Part shown: positions 5,910 to 21,666 of the stretch, one piece after another
Position numbering within the stretch: the first letter of the stretch is position 1
Layout of the letters: each line of letters starts with the position of its first letter
Assembly: GCA_038043185.1 (NCBI GenBank)
Contig: JBBTCO010000003.1
Coordinates: forward strand, 1,484-65,483
Direction of reading: 5' to 3'
Source: Bdellovibrionota bacterium
GTDB taxonomy: Bacteria > Bdellovibrionota > Bdellovibrionia > Bdellovibrionales > Bdellovibrionaceae
DNA length: 64,000 bases
Position numbers and translations under genes: made by a program
The notes under the pieces: model-generated
Database searches by the model: none
Told to the model about the DNA's origin: nothing
The model's input: only the letters and a program-made list of their open reading frames with translations

Positions 5910-5985
5910 GCGATCTTAGCTCAGTTGGTAGAGTACTTGCATGACATGCAAGGTGTCACAGGTTCGAGTCCTGTAGATCGCACCA
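5910..5985 (+). tRNA. tRNA-Val, anticodon GAC
   Basis: Hand-folded 76-nt cloverleaf. Acceptor GCGATCT/AGATCGC. D arm GCTC-AGTTGGTA-GAGT. Anticodon stem CTTGC/GCAAG with loop ATGACAT (anticodon GAC). T arm ACAGG-TTCGAGT-CCTGT. Discriminator A and an encoded CCA. Confidence 0.92.
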
Positions 5986-6014
5986 ATCTTTCTTAAAAGA
6001 CAGAATGCAGACTT

Positions 6015-6083
6015 CAGAATTCGGTACAGTATTCAGAATACAGTTAACAGTATTCTGAATACTGATCTGTATACTGAATTCTG
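6015..6083. terminator. nested hairpin, probable bidirectional terminator between tRNA-Val and the convergent nuclease gene
   Basis: Perfect 15-bp inverted repeat CAGTATTCAGAATAC (6027-6041) / GTATTCTGAATACTG (6050-6064) with an 8-nt loop. An outer 8-bp pair CAGAATTC (6015-6022) / GAATTCTG (6076-6083) encloses it. T-rich tracts follow on both strands. Confidence 0.55.
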
Positions 6084-6086
6084 TAT

Positions 6087-7145
6087 TTATTTTCCGTGAG
6101 CTTCAGGCAATATAATTTCCGTCGATATATCCACAACTACAGGATAATGATCCGATGGAATCATATTAATAAGTTCAGGCGGTGTGTCCATGGGCAAAGG
6201 CCCGTTTCTACCATTTATCTTATAAGGATAAACAAAAGCTTGTTTTACAAAAGGAGCTAGGGAAGGACTCATCATAATAGCATCTACTTGCCGCAGAACT
6301 CTTCGCCCCTCTTTTCCAAGGAAATAACTTGTAGCTCTTCTAGAAAAAGGAACATTAGCGATATCAAAAGCTTCTTTCAATTGATTTAATAGCGGTTGTA
6401 CTTCTGAACCAGGTTTAATGGTTGCATTAAAATCTCCACCCAAAATTAGAGGAACATTTTCGCCAAATTCCTTTTTAAGAGATATAATAATTTTTTCCAT
6501 AGCCGACATTTCAGCGCGTTTTAATGATGCTGAATTTGGATCATTTTTTCTACTTGCTTTGGAATGACCATGGGCTCCTAACGCAATCATAAAGGGTTGT
6601 TTTTCATTCTTACGTCGAAAAATCAAAGCTGGGAAATCTCGTGTAAAAAGAATTTCTTCCTGGTTATTATTCGATGGATTTTTCCATTTCATGTCTCGAT
6701 GAGTTCTTGTCTCTACGTCAACAGGAATGTCTTCTTTAATTAAAAATCCAATTTGCCTTTGGTCATTGCCTTCAAATAAAAAATGAGTCCATTGATTTTT
6801 TAATTTTGCGCTGGCAAGATACTCCATAGAAACTTGATTTACTTCTAGAAGGATCACAAGATCAGGCTGGGTATCCTTGATTAATTCAGGAATAGCATCA
6901 ACCATTGCTTCGACTGTATCTGAAATCGGAAGTGCTTCATTTGGCTTCTGTTCGATATTCTTTAAGTGTTTTTTTACTTTTAAAAAGTAATCTTCCGCAT
7001 TCAACGACATAAACCTCATGCTTTTAATTTTATTTAGTTCTCGATAATTATAAAAAACTTTAGAACAAGATTGAGCATAAGTAATAGAATCGCTAAATAA
7101 AATACCAGCCAATAAACCGATGCTAATTAAAATAAATTTTTTCAT
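6087..7145 (-). CDS. secreted endonuclease/exonuclease/phosphatase (EEP) family protein
   Basis: Signal peptide MKKFILISIGLLAGILFSDSITYA-Q. EEP motifs in order: MSLNAEDYF, LVILLEV, ILGGDFNA, PSDHYPVVVDI. The start overlaps the stop of the upstream gene (ATGA). Confidence 0.85.
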   Translation of the reverse strand: MKKFILISIGLLAGILFSDSITYAQSCSKVFYNYRELNKIKSMRFMSLNAEDYFLKVKKHLKNIEQKPNEALPISDTVEAMVDAIPELIKDTQPDLVILLEVNQVSMEYLASAKLKNQWTHFLFEGNDQRQIGFLIKEDIPVDVETRTHRDMKWKNPSNNNQEEILFTRDFPALIFRRKNEKQPFMIALGAHGHSKASRKNDPNSASLKRAEMSAMEKIIISLKKEFGENVPLILGGDFNATIKPGSEVQPLLNQLKEAFDIANVPFSRRATSYFLGKEGRRVLRQVDAIMMSPSLAPFVKQAFVYPYKINGRNGPLPMDTPPELINMIPSDHYPVVVDISTEIILPEAHGK

Positions 7146-15007: not shown

Positions 15008-16159
15008 CTACTGCGAGGACAGCTGCCAAAAGCTGAGGATCTCGAAATGTTTTGTCTGAGGAAATTGATCAAATAAGGCTATTCTCTGCAAGGAATAGCC
15101 TTTTTCTTTTAAAATACGAACATCTTTTTGCCAAGACTCTAAAAAACACGACATCAGAAAAATATCTTTCGGCCTGTTTAAAGAATAACTCAGTGGCTTT
15201 AAAAATTCGCCAAGACCCGAACGGGGAGGGTTTAAAATTAAAAAATCACAATCGCTAAAATCATAATTTGCAATCCGCTGAAAATCTTTAATGGCGATTT
15301 CTGTTTTTTCTTCCTGGCCGGTTCTTTTGAAATTTTCCTTAAGAGCAATTCCCCCTTGCTCATCAAAATCGACCGCGCAAAAGTGCACGGACTGATTTAA
15401 AAAGATTAAACTTAAATTCCCGACACCGGCACCGAATTCAAGGGTCTTGCGAAATGTTTTATTTGCATAATGTTGTTCCAGAATTTCGCCCAAGATTAAA
15501 TTGGCTTTACGACTGGGTTGAGTGAAGGATGAAACATAAGACAGCAGTGGGAAATTTTTTCCTTGAAAGCGAGTTTCAAACCATTCCTTCATTTCGGGGT
15601 CAACCAGTTTGAGTTTTCCGTCTCGATTAACCAAGACTTTTGATTTCTGACCAATCTCCACAAAGGCCATCTTCATTAAACTTCGCAAATGTGTTTGTTC
15701 CTCTAACAAATTCTTGATGTCTTGATTAGCGAAGTCTAGCCACACACCACGCTGACCATCGACCCCAAGCCTTAGGCGAAAAGATCCCTTTTTTATCGGC
15801 CAGGAAATTTTTCGAAAATTCAAATAAAACCGCAAAAGTTCAGGGGAAAGTTGTCCACATGTGTCTAAATCCTGGATTCTTCCTTGGTGCGAATCATAAA
15901 GGCCAAAGCGACCTTCTTCATAGACAAAATCCAAACGGTCTCGAAGTGCAAAATCCCCGGGAGAAATAAATTCAACCTGAGGGGAGCTTAAACCAAGTTT
16001 CGCCAGGGTTTCGGTCATTTTTTTTATTTTAAAATCTTTTTGCTGCCCTAAATTTTGCCCTAAAAACTGACATCCTTGGCAGTGTGTTTTATGAGGGCAA
16101 TCTCTTTGGCTTTCTAAATTCAAAATTCCCCCATCTACAAGATTGACCAGCCTTAACAA
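15008..16159 (-). CDS. RumA/RumB (RlmD/RlmC) family 23S rRNA (uracil-5-)-methyltransferase, no TRAM domain
   Basis: N-terminal C-x5-C-x2-C (CPHKTHCQGC) plus a distal Cys (DTCGQL), as in the RumA Fe-S site. SAM-binding motifs FTQPS, EFGAGVGNLSL and ILNPPRSGL. Probable TTG start. Confidence 0.7.
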   Translation of the reverse strand: MLRLVNLVDGGILNLESQRDCPHKTHCQGCQFLGQNLGQQKDFKIKKMTETLAKLGLSSPQVEFISPGDFALRDRLDFVYEEGRFGLYDSHQGRIQDLDTCGQLSPELLRFYLNFRKISWPIKKGSFRLRLGVDGQRGVWLDFANQDIKNLLEEQTHLRSLMKMAFVEIGQKSKVLVNRDGKLKLVDPEMKEWFETRFQGKNFPLLSYVSSFTQPSRKANLILGEILEQHYANKTFRKTLEFGAGVGNLSLIFLNQSVHFCAVDFDEQGGIALKENFKRTGQEEKTEIAIKDFQRIANYDFSDCDFLILNPPRSGLGEFLKPLSYSLNRPKDIFLMSCFLESWQKDVRILKEKGYSLQRIALFDQFPQTKHFEILSFWQLSSQ

Positions 16160-16178
16160 CTATCCTAGCCTGTTACCC

Positions 16179-19106
16179 ATGAAAAAAACAATTTTGTTAT
16201 CCCTGATTATTATTTCGTTCCCATTTATACAATCAAAAATTCACGCTGAATCGCCTCAGAAAACAGCGGAAAAAGCGCAAGCGGCCACTGCCGCACTTTA
16301 TGCGACTAAAAACACCGCACTGACAGAACCTCGGCAAATCACCTTTGTTGGACCAAAATCGGGCGAAGGTTATTTTAGCGCGGATGGCAACAAAATGATT
16401 TTTCAGAGTGAAAGAACTGCGGAGAATCCTTTTTACCAAATGTTTGTGCTTGATTTCCTAACAGGCAAAACAACTCAACTCTCTCCGGGAAATGGCAAAA
16501 CCACTTGCGGCTGGATTCATCCTAACATGAAAAAAGCTTTATGGGCTTCGACTCATCAAGATCCAGATTGGAAAAAGAAAAAAGATGAAGAGTACGAGAA
16601 TCGCACCAAAGCCGTCAAAGCTAAGTACGCTTGGAGCTTTGACGATACTTACGACATCTATGAATCGGATCTTAAGGGAAAATCCCGCAAGAAATTAACT
16701 AAAGCAAAAGGCTACGATGCAGAGGCCTCTTACTCGCCAGATGGAAATTGGATTGCTTATGCTTCGAATTCTCATGCTTACTCTGAAAAATTAAGTGAAG
16801 AAGACAAAAAGTTATTTGCCCAAGATCCCTCGAGCCAAATGGAAATCTACATTATGAAATCCAACGGCCAAGGCAAAAAGCGATTAACAAATACACTGGG
16901 TTATGACGGCGGACCATTTTTCAGTCCTGACGGTAAAAAAATAACTTGGCGTCGGTTTGCAACCAATGGAGCTACTGCAGAAATTTTGACGATGAATGTT
17001 GATGGCAGCGATCAAAAACAAATCACTCAGATGAATGCACTTTCCTGGGCGCCATTTTTTCATCCTTCTGGCGATTACATTATCTTTACCAGCAGTGTTT
17101 TGGGATATTCCAACTTTGAATTGTTCATTATCGACAGCGAAGGAAAACACAATCCTGTGCGTGTGACTTTCGATGAAGGCTTTGATGGCTTGCCAGCTTT
17201 TCATCCGCGGGGTGATCAAATCACTTGGACTCACCGAAATGAAAAAGGCGAGAGTCAAATCTTGTTGGCACATTGGAACGACAGTGAAGCTCGAAGATTA
17301 CTTGGCCTTCCAGGCAGACCACTCAGTTTCAAAGATTTATCTCCGCAAATATCATCTCAAGATGCTCGAAAAATCATTCGCTACATGACATCCGCCGAGC
17401 TTGGGGGACGACCCACCGCTGGATCTCAAGAAATCCCTTTTGCCGAATCTTTGGTTCAGCTCTTTAAAGCCTGGGGACTTAAAGGCGGCGGCCCAAAGGG
17501 TGAGTTCATTCACGAATTTGAATTCACTTCGGGTGTAAATTTAGGTGCGAAAAATTCTTTTCAAATTTTGCGTGAAAAAAAATCAGAAGTGAATCTAACC
17601 GTCAGCCAAGATTATCTTCCTTCATCGACTTCGGCCTCGGGAACTTTTTCCGAATCGGACGTCATTTTTGCGGGATATGGTTTAAAAATTCCTTCAACTC
17701 ATGACACTCAAGCCTATGATTCTTATAAAAATATCGATGCAAAAGGGAAGTGGGTTGCGGTGCTTCGGGATTTTCCCCTTAATGCGAGTCCAGTATTGAA
17801 GCAGCAGATGCTGAATTTTTCGCAACCTCAACACAAAATCACCGTCGCGAAAAATGAAGGCGCCATTGGCGTTATTTTTATCAATGGTTATAAGAATGGT
17901 CTTAAAGAAAATTTCAGCCAACTCAAATTTGAAGGCAGTTTAAGCGATAACTCCATTCCCGTGGTCAAAGTTAAAACGGCCATTTTTGAAAAAATGATGG
18001 GGGATCATGAGCTCTCGAAATACGAAACCCCATCAAAAGCAGATCAAGCGGTCCAGGGTTTTGAACTTGCGGGAATCAAAGTAAAAGCAGAAATCAGACT
18101 TGATCTGCAGAAGTCCAAGGGGCGAAATGTTATTGCCCGTTTACCTGGAGGCCTTTCCAAATCCGCAGTTCTGATCGGTGCCCATGGCGATCATCTTGGC
18201 ACGGGCTTATTAGGAAGCTCCTTAGCCACATCCAAAGAGCAAGGTCAGATTCATCCCGGAGCTGACGATAATGCCTCTGGAGTCGCGGCCGTCTTGGAAT
18301 TGGCTCATTATTTTTCTTCTCAGAAAAAAACAAATCCAAAGTCTTTGCAAAAAGATTTGTATTTTGCCGTATGGTCTGGGGAAGAAGTCGGTGTCTTGGG
18401 ATCGTCTCAATACGTTAAAGATTGGGGCGATAAGTTTAGCAAAACTTTTGAAGCTGGAATGAACATGGACATGGTTGGTCGTCTGCGTGAAAAACTTCAT
18501 GTTCAAGGCGTAGCCTCTGGGGATCATTGGACTAATTTATCCGAAGAAATTTCTCTGCGAACGGGTATGCAGCTATCGCTGCAAGAGGATCCTTACTTAC
18601 CAACAGATTCCATGGCTATTTATTTGGGCAATGTCCCTTCAATTAGTTTTTTCACGGGCGCGCATCCCGAATATCACACTCCACGCGATGTCGAGTCTTT
18701 GATTAATTTCGATGGCCTACAACGAACAATTGAAGTGGTCAAAACCTATACTCAACTTCTATCCGACTCTTCAGCCCGAATTGTCAGATATAAAAAAGTC
18801 GAGTCTAAAGGAATAAACCGGGGAGCCGGACAATCTTTTCGATTGTATCTAGGAACTATTCCCGATTATTCGCAAGAAGGCGTTAAAGGCGTTCGCATTT
18901 CTGGAGTTAGCAAGGGGAGCCCTGCTGAAAAAGCTGGACTGAAAGAGAAAGACGTTATCGTCGAGTTTGCCGGAGCTAAAATTGAAAATATCTATGATTA
19001 TGTGTATTCACTGCAAACAGTGAAACCATCGATTGAAACCTCGATTAAAGTCAAACGCGGGGATATAACCCAAGAACTTAAGATTGTTCCTTCCGTTAAA
19101 GAATAG
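16179..19106 (+). CDS. secreted multidomain peptidase: TolB-like beta-propeller, PA/M28 aminopeptidase and PDZ
   Basis: ATG at 16179 with signal peptide MKKTILLSLIIISFPFIQS; the listed 16143 start is a TTG extension. PD40-type repeats (FSADGNKMIF, YSPDGNWIAY, FSPDGKKITW). M28 metal ligand motifs (GAHGDHLG, GADDNASGVA, SGEEVGVLGS, NMDMVG, HPEYHTPRD). C-terminal PDZ (GVRISGVSKGSPAEKAGLKEKDVIV). Confidence 0.8.
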   Translation: MKKTILLSLIIISFPFIQSKIHAESPQKTAEKAQAATAALYATKNTALTEPRQITFVGPKSGEGYFSADGNKMIFQSERTAENPFYQMFVLDFLTGKTTQLSPGNGKTTCGWIHPNMKKALWASTHQDPDWKKKKDEEYENRTKAVKAKYAWSFDDTYDIYESDLKGKSRKKLTKAKGYDAEASYSPDGNWIAYASNSHAYSEKLSEEDKKLFAQDPSSQMEIYIMKSNGQGKKRLTNTLGYDGGPFFSPDGKKITWRRFATNGATAEILTMNVDGSDQKQITQMNALSWAPFFHPSGDYIIFTSSVLGYSNFELFIIDSEGKHNPVRVTFDEGFDGLPAFHPRGDQITWTHRNEKGESQILLAHWNDSEARRLLGLPGRPLSFKDLSPQISSQDARKIIRYMTSAELGGRPTAGSQEIPFAESLVQLFKAWGLKGGGPKGEFIHEFEFTSGVNLGAKNSFQILREKKSEVNLTVSQDYLPSSTSASGTFSESDVIFAGYGLKIPSTHDTQAYDSYKNIDAKGKWVAVLRDFPLNASPVLKQQMLNFSQPQHKITVAKNEGAIGVIFINGYKNGLKENFSQLKFEGSLSDNSIPVVKVKTAIFEKMMGDHELSKYETPSKADQAVQGFELAGIKVKAEIRLDLQKSKGRNVIARLPGGLSKSAVLIGAHGDHLGTGLLGSSLATSKEQGQIHPGADDNASGVAAVLELAHYFSSQKKTNPKSLQKDLYFAVWSGEEVGVLGSSQYVKDWGDKFSKTFEAGMNMDMVGRLREKLHVQGVASGDHWTNLSEEISLRTGMQLSLQEDPYLPTDSMAIYLGNVPSISFFTGAHPEYHTPRDVESLINFDGLQRTIEVVKTYTQLLSDSSARIVRYKKVESKGINRGAGQSFRLYLGTIPDYSQEGVKGVRISGVSKGSPAEKAGLKEKDVIVEFAGAKIENIYDYVYSLQTVKPSIETSIKVKRGDITQELKIVPSVKE

Positions 19107-19126
19107 GAATTTTTTTGACGGTTCGG

Positions 19127-19242
19127 TTTTTTAAAAGATTTCTTATTTTACTTAATAAGGACTCACCATCCATGGTTGCCGGCTCTCGCCCTCCTGGCTC
19201 GCCGAGGTCCTTATTAAGTAAAATAAGAAATCTTTTAAAAAA
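19127..19242. repeat. 116-bp palindrome (36-bp perfect arms) carrying copy 1 of a 64-bp GC-rich module at its apex; terminator position
   Basis: Arms 19127-19162 and 19207-19242 are exact reverse complements. The 44-bp centre is TCACCATCCATGGTTGCCGGCTCTCGCCCTCCTGGCTCGCCGAG. The module shared with the second locus spans 19153-19216. It lies between two convergent gene ends. Confidence 0.9.
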
Positions 19243-19315
19243 TAACAGCCAAGAAAATTTTGAGGTGGGCAGAAGGAATAACATTAAGTTTTTGGGTTAT
19301 ATTTTGGGTTTGTAC

Positions 19316-20533
19316 TTACTGCAGGAGCCAGTGGATTTCATTTATGAGTTTGTTCAGGGAGTCGTCTTCGATAGGGCCGCCATAGTGTTTGGTTCCAAGA
19401 CTGTGGCCGCGATTTGGGTATGAGTTGATGTGGATGGGGGAATTGAAAGAGGTTTGGTAAAAATGGAGCACGTTGAATTCTCTTTGCGCGGGAGTGGCGC
19501 CGTCCACATCGCCATTGTTAAAAGATATTTTTCCATTAAAGTTGAAAAAACTATTTAAATTGTTTGGTCCATCGGTGAAAAACAATTTCCACCAATTGTA
19601 GTTGGCCCAAATAACACCGTATTCGCCAAGAAGATATTTGAATGGTTCGGAGTCGGAATGAGTGAACACTTCATCGCGAGTCGCTTGGTATTTTCTGATA
19701 ATTTCTTTCTGCAAAGAACTTTCCGTCCAACTTCCAGTTGACGATTTTAAGGATTCACACTGATCTTGAGGCATCGCATTGGTTTTACAAACTGTACTAA
19801 TCTCGTTGTTTTCGATTTTCTTATCGCTATTGAGATCCATTTCCCAGTAAGCGTCAGCCATTCGTGACGTAAATTGCCACTGAAAGAGGGCTCTTGGGCT
19901 TTCGGCGACAAATCCCATCATTAACAGTCCCTTTGGTTTAATAAGGGACTTAGAAATAAGTCTGGATAAATGAATTGTTCCTTCGGAATGGGCAAAAATA
20001 ATGATCTGAGCAGCATCAATCGTTGGTTGATTCATTAAATACTTATAAACACTTGCAGCATCGTCCCCTGGATTTGTCGCTGTCACGGTAGCGCGAATTT
20101 TATTATCTATACAGCTATTAACATAATGTTGAGTGATGGATTTTTCGTCATTACATGTTTTACAAAGAGGAACAGTTCTTTCACTGCAAGAAACACCTCT
20201 GTAATCATATCGTGCCGCTGCAATCCCATGTTTATTCAAAAATAAAGAAAACTCTTTAAAAAGAAGATCACGGTCCGTATTGCTTGAGCCATAATTGTAA
20301 TCACGATCAAACAACCCAGTTCCACCAACCATTAACACTATCGGAAATTTGCGAACGGAACGGGAAGCCGGCTCATCAGGGAGATCAACTTGACCATGAA
20401 TTTGAGTGATTCCATCCTCAGTGGCTATCGAAAATTGAATTGTTTTCGAAAAGCCACAGACTGGAAGAAGTAAAATTACTAGAAGATTTATATAACCCAA
20501 AATACCCATAATTCCCCGACCCCAAGTGCCCAC
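19316..20533 (-). CDS. secreted alpha/beta-hydrolase fold protein
   Basis: Hydrophobic N-terminus (an alternative start is MGILGYINLLVILLLPVCGFS at 20509). Nucleophile-elbow-like FAHSEGT. GGTGLFDRD is oxyanion-region-like. 405-aa ORF. Confidence 0.6.
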   Translation of the reverse strand: MGTWGRGIMGILGYINLLVILLLPVCGFSKTIQFSIATEDGITQIHGQVDLPDEPASRSVRKFPIVLMVGGTGLFDRDYNYGSSNTDRDLLFKEFSLFLNKHGIAAARYDYRGVSCSERTVPLCKTCNDEKSITQHYVNSCIDNKIRATVTATNPGDDAASVYKYLMNQPTIDAAQIIIFAHSEGTIHLSRLISKSLIKPKGLLMMGFVAESPRALFQWQFTSRMADAYWEMDLNSDKKIENNEISTVCKTNAMPQDQCESLKSSTGSWTESSLQKEIIRKYQATRDEVFTHSDSEPFKYLLGEYGVIWANYNWWKLFFTDGPNNLNSFFNFNGKISFNNGDVDGATPAQREFNVLHFYQTSFNSPIHINSYPNRGHSLGTKHYGGPIEDDSLNKLINEIHWLLQ

Positions 20534-20553
20534 AGGAAAGGACTTAACGAAGT

Positions 20554-20934
20554 TTATTTAACGTAACAATTAAGTTTATTTTTACCTTCTCGAAGAAGAT
20601 TTAAATGCGCTACTCTTAGTTGAGCGAATACACTCTGAGCTTTAATATCCATGATAAGTTGAGCGTTGTAATAATTACTTTGATCAGCACTAACCAATTG
20701 CGTAATTACACCACCTAAAATTTCGCTTCCCATTAAAGCAACTGGGAATTCTGCTTTTCCTTTTACCGTTAATTGTATTATGGGTACTTGTTGCCTGTTG
20801 TAATAAAAAACCGCGATTACATCATGATTTGGCGAGGTACATGTAACTCGTTGGTTCTTTCCAATCCCCTGTGAAAACGCAAGTTGAGACAAAGATAAAA
20901 CTCCTAATAACAAAGCACTTTTTAAAAACTTCAT
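20554..20934 (-). CDS. small secreted protein, unknown function
   Basis: Signal peptide MKFLKSALLLGVLSLSQLAFS-QG. 126 aa with two Cys. It lies 20 nt upstream of the hydrolase gene on the same strand. Confidence 0.55.
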   Translation of the reverse strand: MKFLKSALLLGVLSLSQLAFSQGIGKNQRVTCTSPNHDVIAVFYYNRQQVPIIQLTVKGKAEFPVALMGSEILGGVITQLVSADQSNYYNAQLIMDIKAQSVFAQLRVAHLNLLREGKNKLNCYVK

Positions 20935-21172
20935 GGCTAGCTCCTTACGATTGATACCGTTCCCAATAGAGTGGATTAATTCCCCTTACTTCAAAGTAGA
21001 ACGGTTTCTTATTAGGTCGTAAAATACATTAGTTTTCAAAAAGCTTCTACTGTTAGCCTTTCTGACAGGTAAAAACTACAAGCAGCAAGCAATACGCGCG
21101 CTCGCACAGCCGCCCTCTAATCCAAACCCGATCCCAAACACACCCCAGGAAGTGATTTTTTCATTAGGAAAA

Positions 21173-21280
21173 GTTCTTTAGAGCTTCCTCTATATAATAA
21201 GGACCTCGGCGAGCCAGGAGGGCGAGAGCCGGCAACCATGGATGGTGAGTCCTTATTATATAGAGGAAGCTCTAAAGAAC
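21173..21280. repeat. 108-bp palindrome (32-bp perfect arms) carrying copy 2 of the 64-bp GC-rich module, inverted relative to copy 1
   Basis: Arms 21173-21204 and 21249-21280 are exact reverse complements. The 44-bp centre 21205-21248 is the exact reverse complement of 19163-19206. The shared module spans 21195-21258. Confidence 0.9.
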
Positions 21281-21345
21281 GGCTTGCTAAAGCAAAACAA
21301 TCACTTCCGATAAGTTATATTATGTTACAAATTGAATTTTGCAGT

Positions 21346-21666
21346 CTATCGACCGGCTTTTATCACTGGAGAATGCTTAACTCTTCCTTTTTGATCAACA
21401 ATAGCATCGTTGCCATTTCCAACTTGAGCAAATGACATGTATCCCAAAATAATATCGTCAGGCGGTCGTTTTCCGCCGGTTTTTTCTCCGTATTCCTTTA
21501 ACATGACTTCAGTTGGTTTCCAGGGATACTCGCCCAATTGGATCCCAGCTTTTTTAAAAAAACCAACAACCTTTTCAGGAGTCGCATATGTTGGAGCGGA
21601 CTCCCAAAATCCATAAGATGAACTCGTTAAAATAAGGCCAAATAAGATGCTAAATAGTATTTTCAT
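21346..21666 (-). CDS. small secreted protein, unknown function
   Basis: Signal peptide MKILFSILFGLILTSSSYG. 106 aa. Confidence 0.5.
   Translation of the reverse strand: MKILFSILFGLILTSSSYGFWESAPTYATPEKVVGFFKKAGIQLGEYPWKPTEVMLKEYGEKTGGKRPPDDIILGYMSFAQVGNGNDAIVDQKGRVKHSPVIKAGR

Follow-up and report, generated by a model that had tools for sequence, protein, structure and literature searches.

A family of intergenic hairpin elements of about 110 bp, lineage-restricted, low in copy number and undescribed before, was identified in uncultured Bdellovibrionaceae from two of its members in the window (the whole stretch of DNA analysed, 64 kb). Their conservation pattern is unusual, in that the tip of the hairpin is fixed and the stem drifts yet is always perfect. 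The explanation that we favor, and that as a whole has in our view about an even chance of being right, joins a DNA-level process, in which each arm is copied from its partner, with an apical module that would serve in binding. The repeat unit is a 32–36 bp AT-rich stem with a 44-nt GC-rich, non-palindromic module at its apex. A conserved 44-nt module of this kind in an uncultured predator lineage is new.

The window is ordinary chromosome, with DnaE, a fab cluster, ribonucleotide reductase, Kup, ScpAB and tRNA-Val. By way of its 106-aa protein it was placed on contig CAYHJN010000003.1 of MAG GCA_964356945.1. Copy 2, at positions 21173–21280, is a perfect hairpin of 32+44+32 nt and lies 2 kb from copy 1 in the opposite orientation. 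Small hairpins within the core are predicted folds, and L007 and L015 denote a further locus and a second strain, respectively. The features of the region are as follows:

19127–19242, plus strand: copy 1, 36+44+36 nt, inverted relative to copy 2; starts 20 nt past the stop codon of an M28/PDZ peptidase gene
19316–20934, minus strand: two-gene block between the inverted copies, consisting of a 126-aa ORF (20554–20934) and a 405-aa alpha/beta-hydrolase-like ORF (19316–20533)
21173–21204, minus strand: arm of copy 2 on the 3' side of the core (read in the sense of the core); 32 nt, AT-rich, 100% complementary to 21249–21280
21205–21248, minus strand: core of copy 2, 44 nt, GC-rich, asymmetric, apical; the minus strand reads TCACCATCCATGGTTGCCGGCTCTCGCCCTCCTGGCTCGCCGAG
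21207–21231, minus strand: predicted small hairpin 2 of the core, CGGC..GCC-CUCCU-GGC..GCCG, core positions 18–42
21235–21246, minus strand: predicted small hairpin 1 of the core, ACCA-UCCA-UGGU, core positions 3–14; compensatory A-U to G-C change in L007
21249–21280, minus strand: arm of copy 2 on the 5' side of the core (same reading); 32 nt; two substitutions mirrored in L015
21319–21348, minus strand: sigma-70-like promoter match, TAGACT-18-CATAAT, ending some 40 nt short of copy 2 on its upstream side (core-sense reading); a consensus match only
21346–21666, minus strand: 106-aa ORF ending 65 nt upstream of copy 2 in the minus-strand sense; coding score 0.257 bits/codon

Homologues of the 405-aa ORF were Bdellovibrio proteins carrying PF12146. 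The promoter scan found 4 sigma-70-like sites where 5.9 were expected, so that the match at 21319–21348 is not significant. Promoter and terminator scans near the copies gave nothing above shuffle expectation, and no copy of the element was called as a terminator. Both strands of both window copies folded very stably (−55 to −66 kcal/mol for either strand, z about −10.5 to −11.7).

An earlier, sequence-only reading of this DNA had described the center of copy 2 as the exact reverse complement of that of copy 1, with the next 10 bp on each side also shared, and this was confirmed. The 44-mer TCACCATCCATGGTTGCCGGCTCTCGCCCTCCTGGCTCGCCGAG occurred exactly twice in the window, at 19163–19206 (plus strand) and 21205–21248 (minus strand), with 44/44 positions identical and 0 mismatches; a shuffle control gave a match in 0 of 100 shuffles. 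The 10 nt flanking the core on each side (TAATAAGGAC / GTCCTTATTA) were found in both copies. The arms of copy 1 (19127–19162 and 19207–19242) are 36 nt long and 100% complementary, with the 44-nt core between them, and similarity between the two copies extended over 86 nt at 88%. The genes for the 126-aa and 405-aa proteins lie between the two inverted copies (19127–21280). If one minus-strand transcript ran across both copies, its 5' leader would be complementary to its 3' end, perfectly over 64 nt and at 88% over 86 nt.

Two further loci were recovered in large scans limited to exact matches of a 20–23-mer, and the sample of the family is small. Among the GTDB representative genomes there was one locus (L007), in the Bdellovibrionaceae MAG ND5_Bin_38_1. 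In metagenome contigs the exact core matched one genuine locus (L009), which lies on a contig of 78 kb assembled from Hainich H41 groundwater, and six chance sites in high-GC coding DNA. In addition, an assembly from another study with 98% protein identity (GCA_021733565.1, L015) carried both window copies at the orthologous sites and in the same orientation. The family thus totals four independent loci and six sequenced copies, with stems of 32–36 bp; the carriers are the Hainich H41 groundwater MAG GCA_964356945.1 and the ND5 assemblies JAKFZD and JAKFYD. Copy number was two in the 64 kb window, one in the 78-kb contig and, counted as exact cores, one in the whole L007 genome. The four loci have the following contexts:

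Copy 1: starts 20 nt past the peptidase stop codon; the flanking genes are convergent
Copy 2: separated by 65 nt from the stop codon of the preceding 106-aa ORF and by 238 nt from the start of the following 126-aa ORF; both genes on the minus strand, with the core in their sense
L007: separated by 14 nt from the preceding ORF and by 175 nt from the following one; core in their sense
L009: flanked by divergent genes, with 53 nt to the start of an SLT transglycosylase gene on one side and 86 nt to the start of a 254-aa ORF with a coding score on the other

Further searches returned little beyond these copies. A covariance-model search of 137 kb found the six copies and no decayed one. Perfect hairpins of at least 12 bp were otherwise almost absent from the carrier DNA (94 kb), and 90 kb from more distant Bdellovibrio relatives held no perfect hairpin of at least 13 bp. 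Viral contigs gave 0 matches to the exact core and to a looser core pattern, and no match to the two arms in an exact search, while the plasmid collection held nothing relevant for the core. Arm 20-mers (up to 2 mismatches) had no other match in about 170 kb, and a reading of the stem as a guide or spacer was dropped. A six-frame concatenation of the core translations gave nothing at E ≤ 10, and a 17-position profile of these translations matched one irrelevant repeat protein in the representative library. In a comparison for empty sites, the next relatives (at most 53% identity for the 405-aa protein) were not syntenic, the lineage being sampled in two datasets only, and a look-up by ACP yielded no species but this one.

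Separate ENA and Logan assemblies of the Hainich site (including L002, L004 and L005) contained the same palindromes in the same orientation. Since independent assemblies and a second strain carry both copies, the structure is real and not an assembly artefact. Several contigs end inside the element, as is expected of a repeat. Orientation was constant wherever it could be read, for copy 2 in L001, L002, L004, L005 and L015 and for copy 1 in L001, L004 and L015. Every assembly spanning a copy showed one orientation only, with no sign of an invertible DNA switch (inverton).

The sequence-only reading had called the outer arms of the two copies perfectly complementary and yet unrelated. The first part held for both stems (32 nt and 36 nt). 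The second did not, given the 88% similarity over 86 nt noted above and arm comparisons between loci that beat shuffles in three of the six locus pairs: copy 1 with L007 (p = 0.0025), L007 with L009 (p = 0.0035) and copy 1 with copy 2 (p = 0.0005). By blastn, the whole L007 element was 80.7% identical to copy 1 over 114 nt and 77.6% identical to L009 over 116 nt. These comparisons identify the stems at different loci as diverged homologues, and the repeat unit is therefore the whole hairpin. Arms differ by 20–50% between loci.

Throughout this divergence the pairing is intact. The 137 independent stem pairs of the four loci included 0 mismatches and 0 G-T pairs. In the six-copy alignment both sides had changed in 29 of 37 stem pairs, with no pair changed on one side only and none unpaired. 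No G-U occurred among the variable stem pairs, the sole wobble being the invariant U-G that closes the core. Pairing was 100%, compared to 80% in shuffles and 37–55% with the partners slid. Arm lengths were 36, 32, 34 and 35 nt across the four loci, equal within each pair, and the core was always 44 nt. As lengths are unequal between loci and equal within each hairpin, indels must have been mirrored too.

Mirroring was also seen between the two strains, against a background of ~1.4% difference in the neighboring genes and spacers (26 of 1879 aligned positions). In copy 2, arm positions 14 (T to A) and 16 (C to T) differ between the window and L015, and both partner bases have changed to match. 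By our own calculation, the chance of two mirrored substitutions under independent mutation is ~2e-4. In copy 1 of L015 a T-run is one T shorter, and the perfect stem there is 35 bp compared to 36 bp in the window.

The core behaves differently from the arms. The cores of copy 1, copy 2 and L009, which come from one population, are identical (44/44), and that of L007 matches at 42/44. The two L007 changes, A3G and T14C, convert an A-U pair of hairpin 1 (ACCA/UGGU) to G-C and are compensatory; this one change supports the predicted hairpin 1. In L015, the core of copy 2 has A10T, in the loop of hairpin 1, and C18A, at the outermost position of hairpin 2 (C at window position 21231), which breaks the outermost C-G pair. 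Core positions 19–44 are invariant in all six copies. Near-invariance of the core next to 20–50% divergence of the arms suggests purifying selection on the core, as judged from paralogue and cross-genome comparisons only. Between the window and its L015 orthologues, change was about equal in the two parts (2 of 88 core nt, 2 of 68 stem pairs). Folded alone, the core did no better than shuffles (z −0.4 to −1.0).

The sequence-only reading had proposed either selection on the helix or a mechanism that generates it, and the second is the one favored here. Watson–Crick-only pairs together with mirrored substitutions and mirrored indels argue for arm copying at the DNA level over compensation at the RNA level, because selection on RNA pairing tolerates and passes through G-U and does not mirror indels, and so does not fit the stem data. 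One arm would serve as template for the other and so keep the pairing perfect, probably through intramolecular template switching in replication (quasi-palindrome correction) or through repair of a hairpin heteroduplex. Template switching that homogenizes the arms of inverted repeats has been documented in E. coli and yeast, and it has also been proposed to keep inverted repeats perfect in proteobacterial genomes (PMC5941160, PMC7202029, PMC8604942). This process accounts for Watson–Crick-only arms and for mirrored substitutions, multinucleotide changes and indels. In the elements, changes in one arm appear as the complement in the other, and no G-T intermediates were seen. They differ from the process in that quasi-palindrome correction is a mutational process and not an element family, and leaves the conserved 44-nt spacer and the narrow range of arm lengths (32–36 bp) unexplained. 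Inversion of the spacer, which quasi-palindrome correction would allow, was seen in no assembly. Correction is also not universal, as an inverted repeat in the same window (6004–6087, 81% complementary) has not been homogenized. The elements offer a clean natural case of inverted-repeat arms evolving in concert. They also indicate that 'covariation' in long perfect hairpins may be mutational and that, alone, it is no proof of a functional RNA helix.

The apical module, nearly constant putatively through purifying selection, would then be the functional part. Most likely it would be presented by hairpins transcribed as part of UTRs or intergenic RNAs, at whose tip it stands, while the stem need only pair. 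Our best guess is that the tip of this putatively transcribed hairpin acts as a binding platform, with a protein or an RNA as the candidate partner.

The main rival to a recognition platform is a selfish, non-autonomous mobile element of the MITE or REPIN type, which would move as DNA and have no host function. Its core would be the site for a transposase encoded elsewhere, e.g., an HUH/Y1 enzyme of the kind that binds small hairpins in single-stranded DNA. We consider this unlikely, although several observations agree with it: the elements are dispersed, intergenic and multi-copy, contigs break inside them, the whole hairpin is homologous across loci and genomes, and between orthologues the core and the arms have similar rates of change. 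MITEs such as Correia elements, RUP and Nezha are about 100–150 bp long and intergenic, have terminal inverted repeats that fold as a hairpin, and can sit in UTRs and affect transcripts. However, the terminal repeats of MITEs are conserved transposase sites and similarity runs over their full length, whereas the arms here differ by 20–50% around identical cores. No direct duplication of a target site flanked the arms at any of the four loci.

Integron attC sites offer another comparison, since their sequence varies between copies and their folded, single-strand palindromic structure is conserved, as in the element. Unlike in the element, the ends of attC sites are conserved (R and L boxes), the stems are imperfect and carry extrahelical bases, the centers vary, and the sites stand in cassette arrays next to an integrase.

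REPs and REPINs, which are RAYT-associated palindromic repeats, are likewise short, intergenic and hairpin-forming. A change on one side of their hairpin is often compensated on the other (PMC3116915), and this agreement extends to the mobile-element reading. REPINs conserve two REP sequences at the base and vary in the middle, whereas the element conserves its apex and varies its stem: the outer arms are the most variable part and the center is invariant. Its stems are also much longer and perfect, and in the sequence covered its copy number is far below the tens to hundreds per genome expected of REPINs. Thus, conservation is reversed relative to both MITEs and REPINs. Also against mobility, the 58 ORFs of the window included no transposase, RAYT, reverse transcriptase or integrase, copy number was low with no decayed copies in 137 kb, and both copies were kept at the same sites in two strains. 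Finally, as the two window copies stand 2 kb apart in opposite orientations, there is no replication-strand bias. The sequence-only reading had held that decaying arms at other copies and random orientation would favor a neutral mobile repeat. No such decay was found in 137 kb, in a small census. Two loci are informative on orientation, and a 3'-end rule fails at one of the four (L009).

It is rather improbable, in our assessment, that the element is a 3'-end RNA, a terminator or stabilizer in the sense of the upstream gene whose helix is kept by selection on RNA pairing. The sequence-only reading had suggested a strand-specific role at 3' ends, and its observation behind this was correct: in both window copies the TCACCATCC strand is the sense of the gene ending just upstream. 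At three of the four loci a gene in the sense orientation stops 14–65 nt before the element, the hairpins fold very stably, and UUUUCCU follows the stem of copy 2. As a rule the suggestion failed, however. The L009 copy lies between divergent gene starts, and only two of the four loci, those with co-directional flanking genes, are informative about orientation. The U-run is present at copy 2 alone among the four loci, with no U-tract after the stem at copy 1, L007 or L009. Intrinsic (Rho-independent) terminators resemble the element in placing a stable hairpin soon after a stop codon, but the stem of the element is 3–6 times longer and AT-rich rather than GC-rich, and it encloses a 44-nt structured loop. 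Furthermore, zero G-U in 137 pairs and the mirrored indels are unlike selection at the RNA level, and the peptidase gene already has a terminator-like hairpin at 19093–19121. This hairpin overlaps the peptidase stop codon, and its T-run forms the outer end of the left arm of copy 1.

More doubtful still is a function for the opposite strand, on which predicted apical loops AGGAG and UGGA, 23 nt apart, might form a CsrA/RsmA-binding pair like that of the TwoAYGGAY RNA (RF01731, clan CL00106). A gathering-threshold scan of the window with Rfam found tRNA-Val only, and no family matched the element at threshold. Scans by E-value gave only generic long-hairpin matches (plant and animal miRNA precursors) and sub-threshold matches to TwoAYGGAY. 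The latter occurred at all four loci (27.0, 30.7, 32.6 and 35.7 bits), and in L009 the model hairpin CCaUGGAuGG aligned to ACCAUGGAUGGU. As in TwoAYGGAY RNA, a long outer stem (32–36 bp) encloses two small hairpins, and the reverse-strand loops read AUGGAU and AGGAG. GGA is present in both predicted loops, and the L015 variant retains it (AAGGAU). TwoAYGGAY is a proposed CsrA binder with an outer stem, which is poorly conserved in the Rfam model (PMC4333381), and in Bdellovibrio bacteriovorus CsrA is functional while no Csr sRNA is known (PMC13443453).

Against this, all scores (27–36 bits) were below the gathering score of 43 and came mostly from the generic long stem. In L007 the two strands scored alike (35.7 and 33.7 bits) with the apex skipped, so it is largely the long AT-rich stem that produces the matches, as it does for many of those to miRNA precursors. 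AYGGAY fits one loop only, the second loop region being CAGGAG, and the motif was chosen after the sequence had been seen. The core fold was no better than shuffles, TwoAYGGAY RNA is known from gut Clostridiales and gammaproteobacteria, and at both co-directional loci the reverse strand is antisense to its neighbors. A two-site GGA platform for CsrA on the reverse strand, with the long self-correcting stem as a nuclease-resistant scaffold, is a long shot in our judgement. If it were true, Bdellovibrionota, a predator lineage with no known partner RNA of CsrA although CsrA is reportedly needed for predation, would have its first RNAs of the Csr type, titrating or cis-acting.

Very unlikely is a reading in which the mobile unit is just the 44-nt core and a few bases next to it, which would enter the loops of existing palindromes, the arms being target DNA. 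Some insertion sequences do target hairpin loops, e.g., IS1397 in palindromic units, and such insertion would agree with identical cores where arms differ and with a similarity between copies 1 and 2 that drops outward from the core. However, neither the carrier DNA (94 kb) nor that of relatives (90 kb) held an empty palindrome of this kind, the arms are homologous over their full length across loci and genomes, and 44 nt without coding capacity or terminal repeats of their own would make a poor transposon. That the element arose in assembly or library preparation, e.g., as a chimeric fold-back or an adapter, is of negligible probability: missed hairpin adapters do yield perfect palindromes around a constant center, and several contigs end inside the element, but assemblies made independently, from different samples and studies, show it with strain-specific substitutions and between normal, unique flanking sequences, and to our knowledge the core has no resemblance to common adapters.

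Several minor observations were made in the surrounding DNA. Two reading frames, at 19115–19423 (plus strand) and 19096–19284 (minus strand), cross the core and both arms without a stop in most copies, and one such frame is annotated as an 83-aa gene in a public MAG. A protein-coding reading of the element was rejected, as the ORFs score non-coding and element lengths are not all multiples of three; these frames are probably spurious gene calls.

Comparison of the window with L015 also indicated differences beyond the elements. The peptidase gene (16143–19050 vs. L015:5020-7503) is ~12% different, compared to 1.0–1.4% in adjacent genes. This divergent tract stops ~55 nt before the peptidase stop codon, just ahead of copy 1, and its edge looks like a recombination import boundary. 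A hot spot at 19275–19300 has 8 differences in 25 nt. Synteny is lost ~55 nt beyond copy 2 (window 21331–21345 vs. L015:2744-2760), where the 106-aa ORF of the window stands opposite a GDSL-lipase/ricin-lectin gene in L015. Inside this break, the promoter-like spacer, copy 2 and the downstream genes are common to both. Positions L015:512-610 are a run of N, a scaffold gap in the public contig JAKFZD010010484.1.

Two other palindromic structures were noted. In the window, tRNA-Val(GAC) at 5910–5985 is followed 19 nt on by an AT-rich quasi-palindrome of 84 nt (6004–6087), which abuts the end of the ORF at 6087–7145 (minus strand). Its 42-nt arms are 81% complementary with no spacer, and it has an inner perfect stem of 15 bp with an 8-nt loop. 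In L009, a second element of similar build and with another center lies at L009:4152-4256. It had no Rfam match and was not found in the window or in viral contigs. This element begins 10 nt past the stop codon of an ABC-permease ORF. Its arms are perfect, AT-rich and 17 nt long (TTTAAATTCCAAAGGCC), and the GC-rich core of 71 nt between them holds a CGCAC-AGGAA-GUGCG hairpin.
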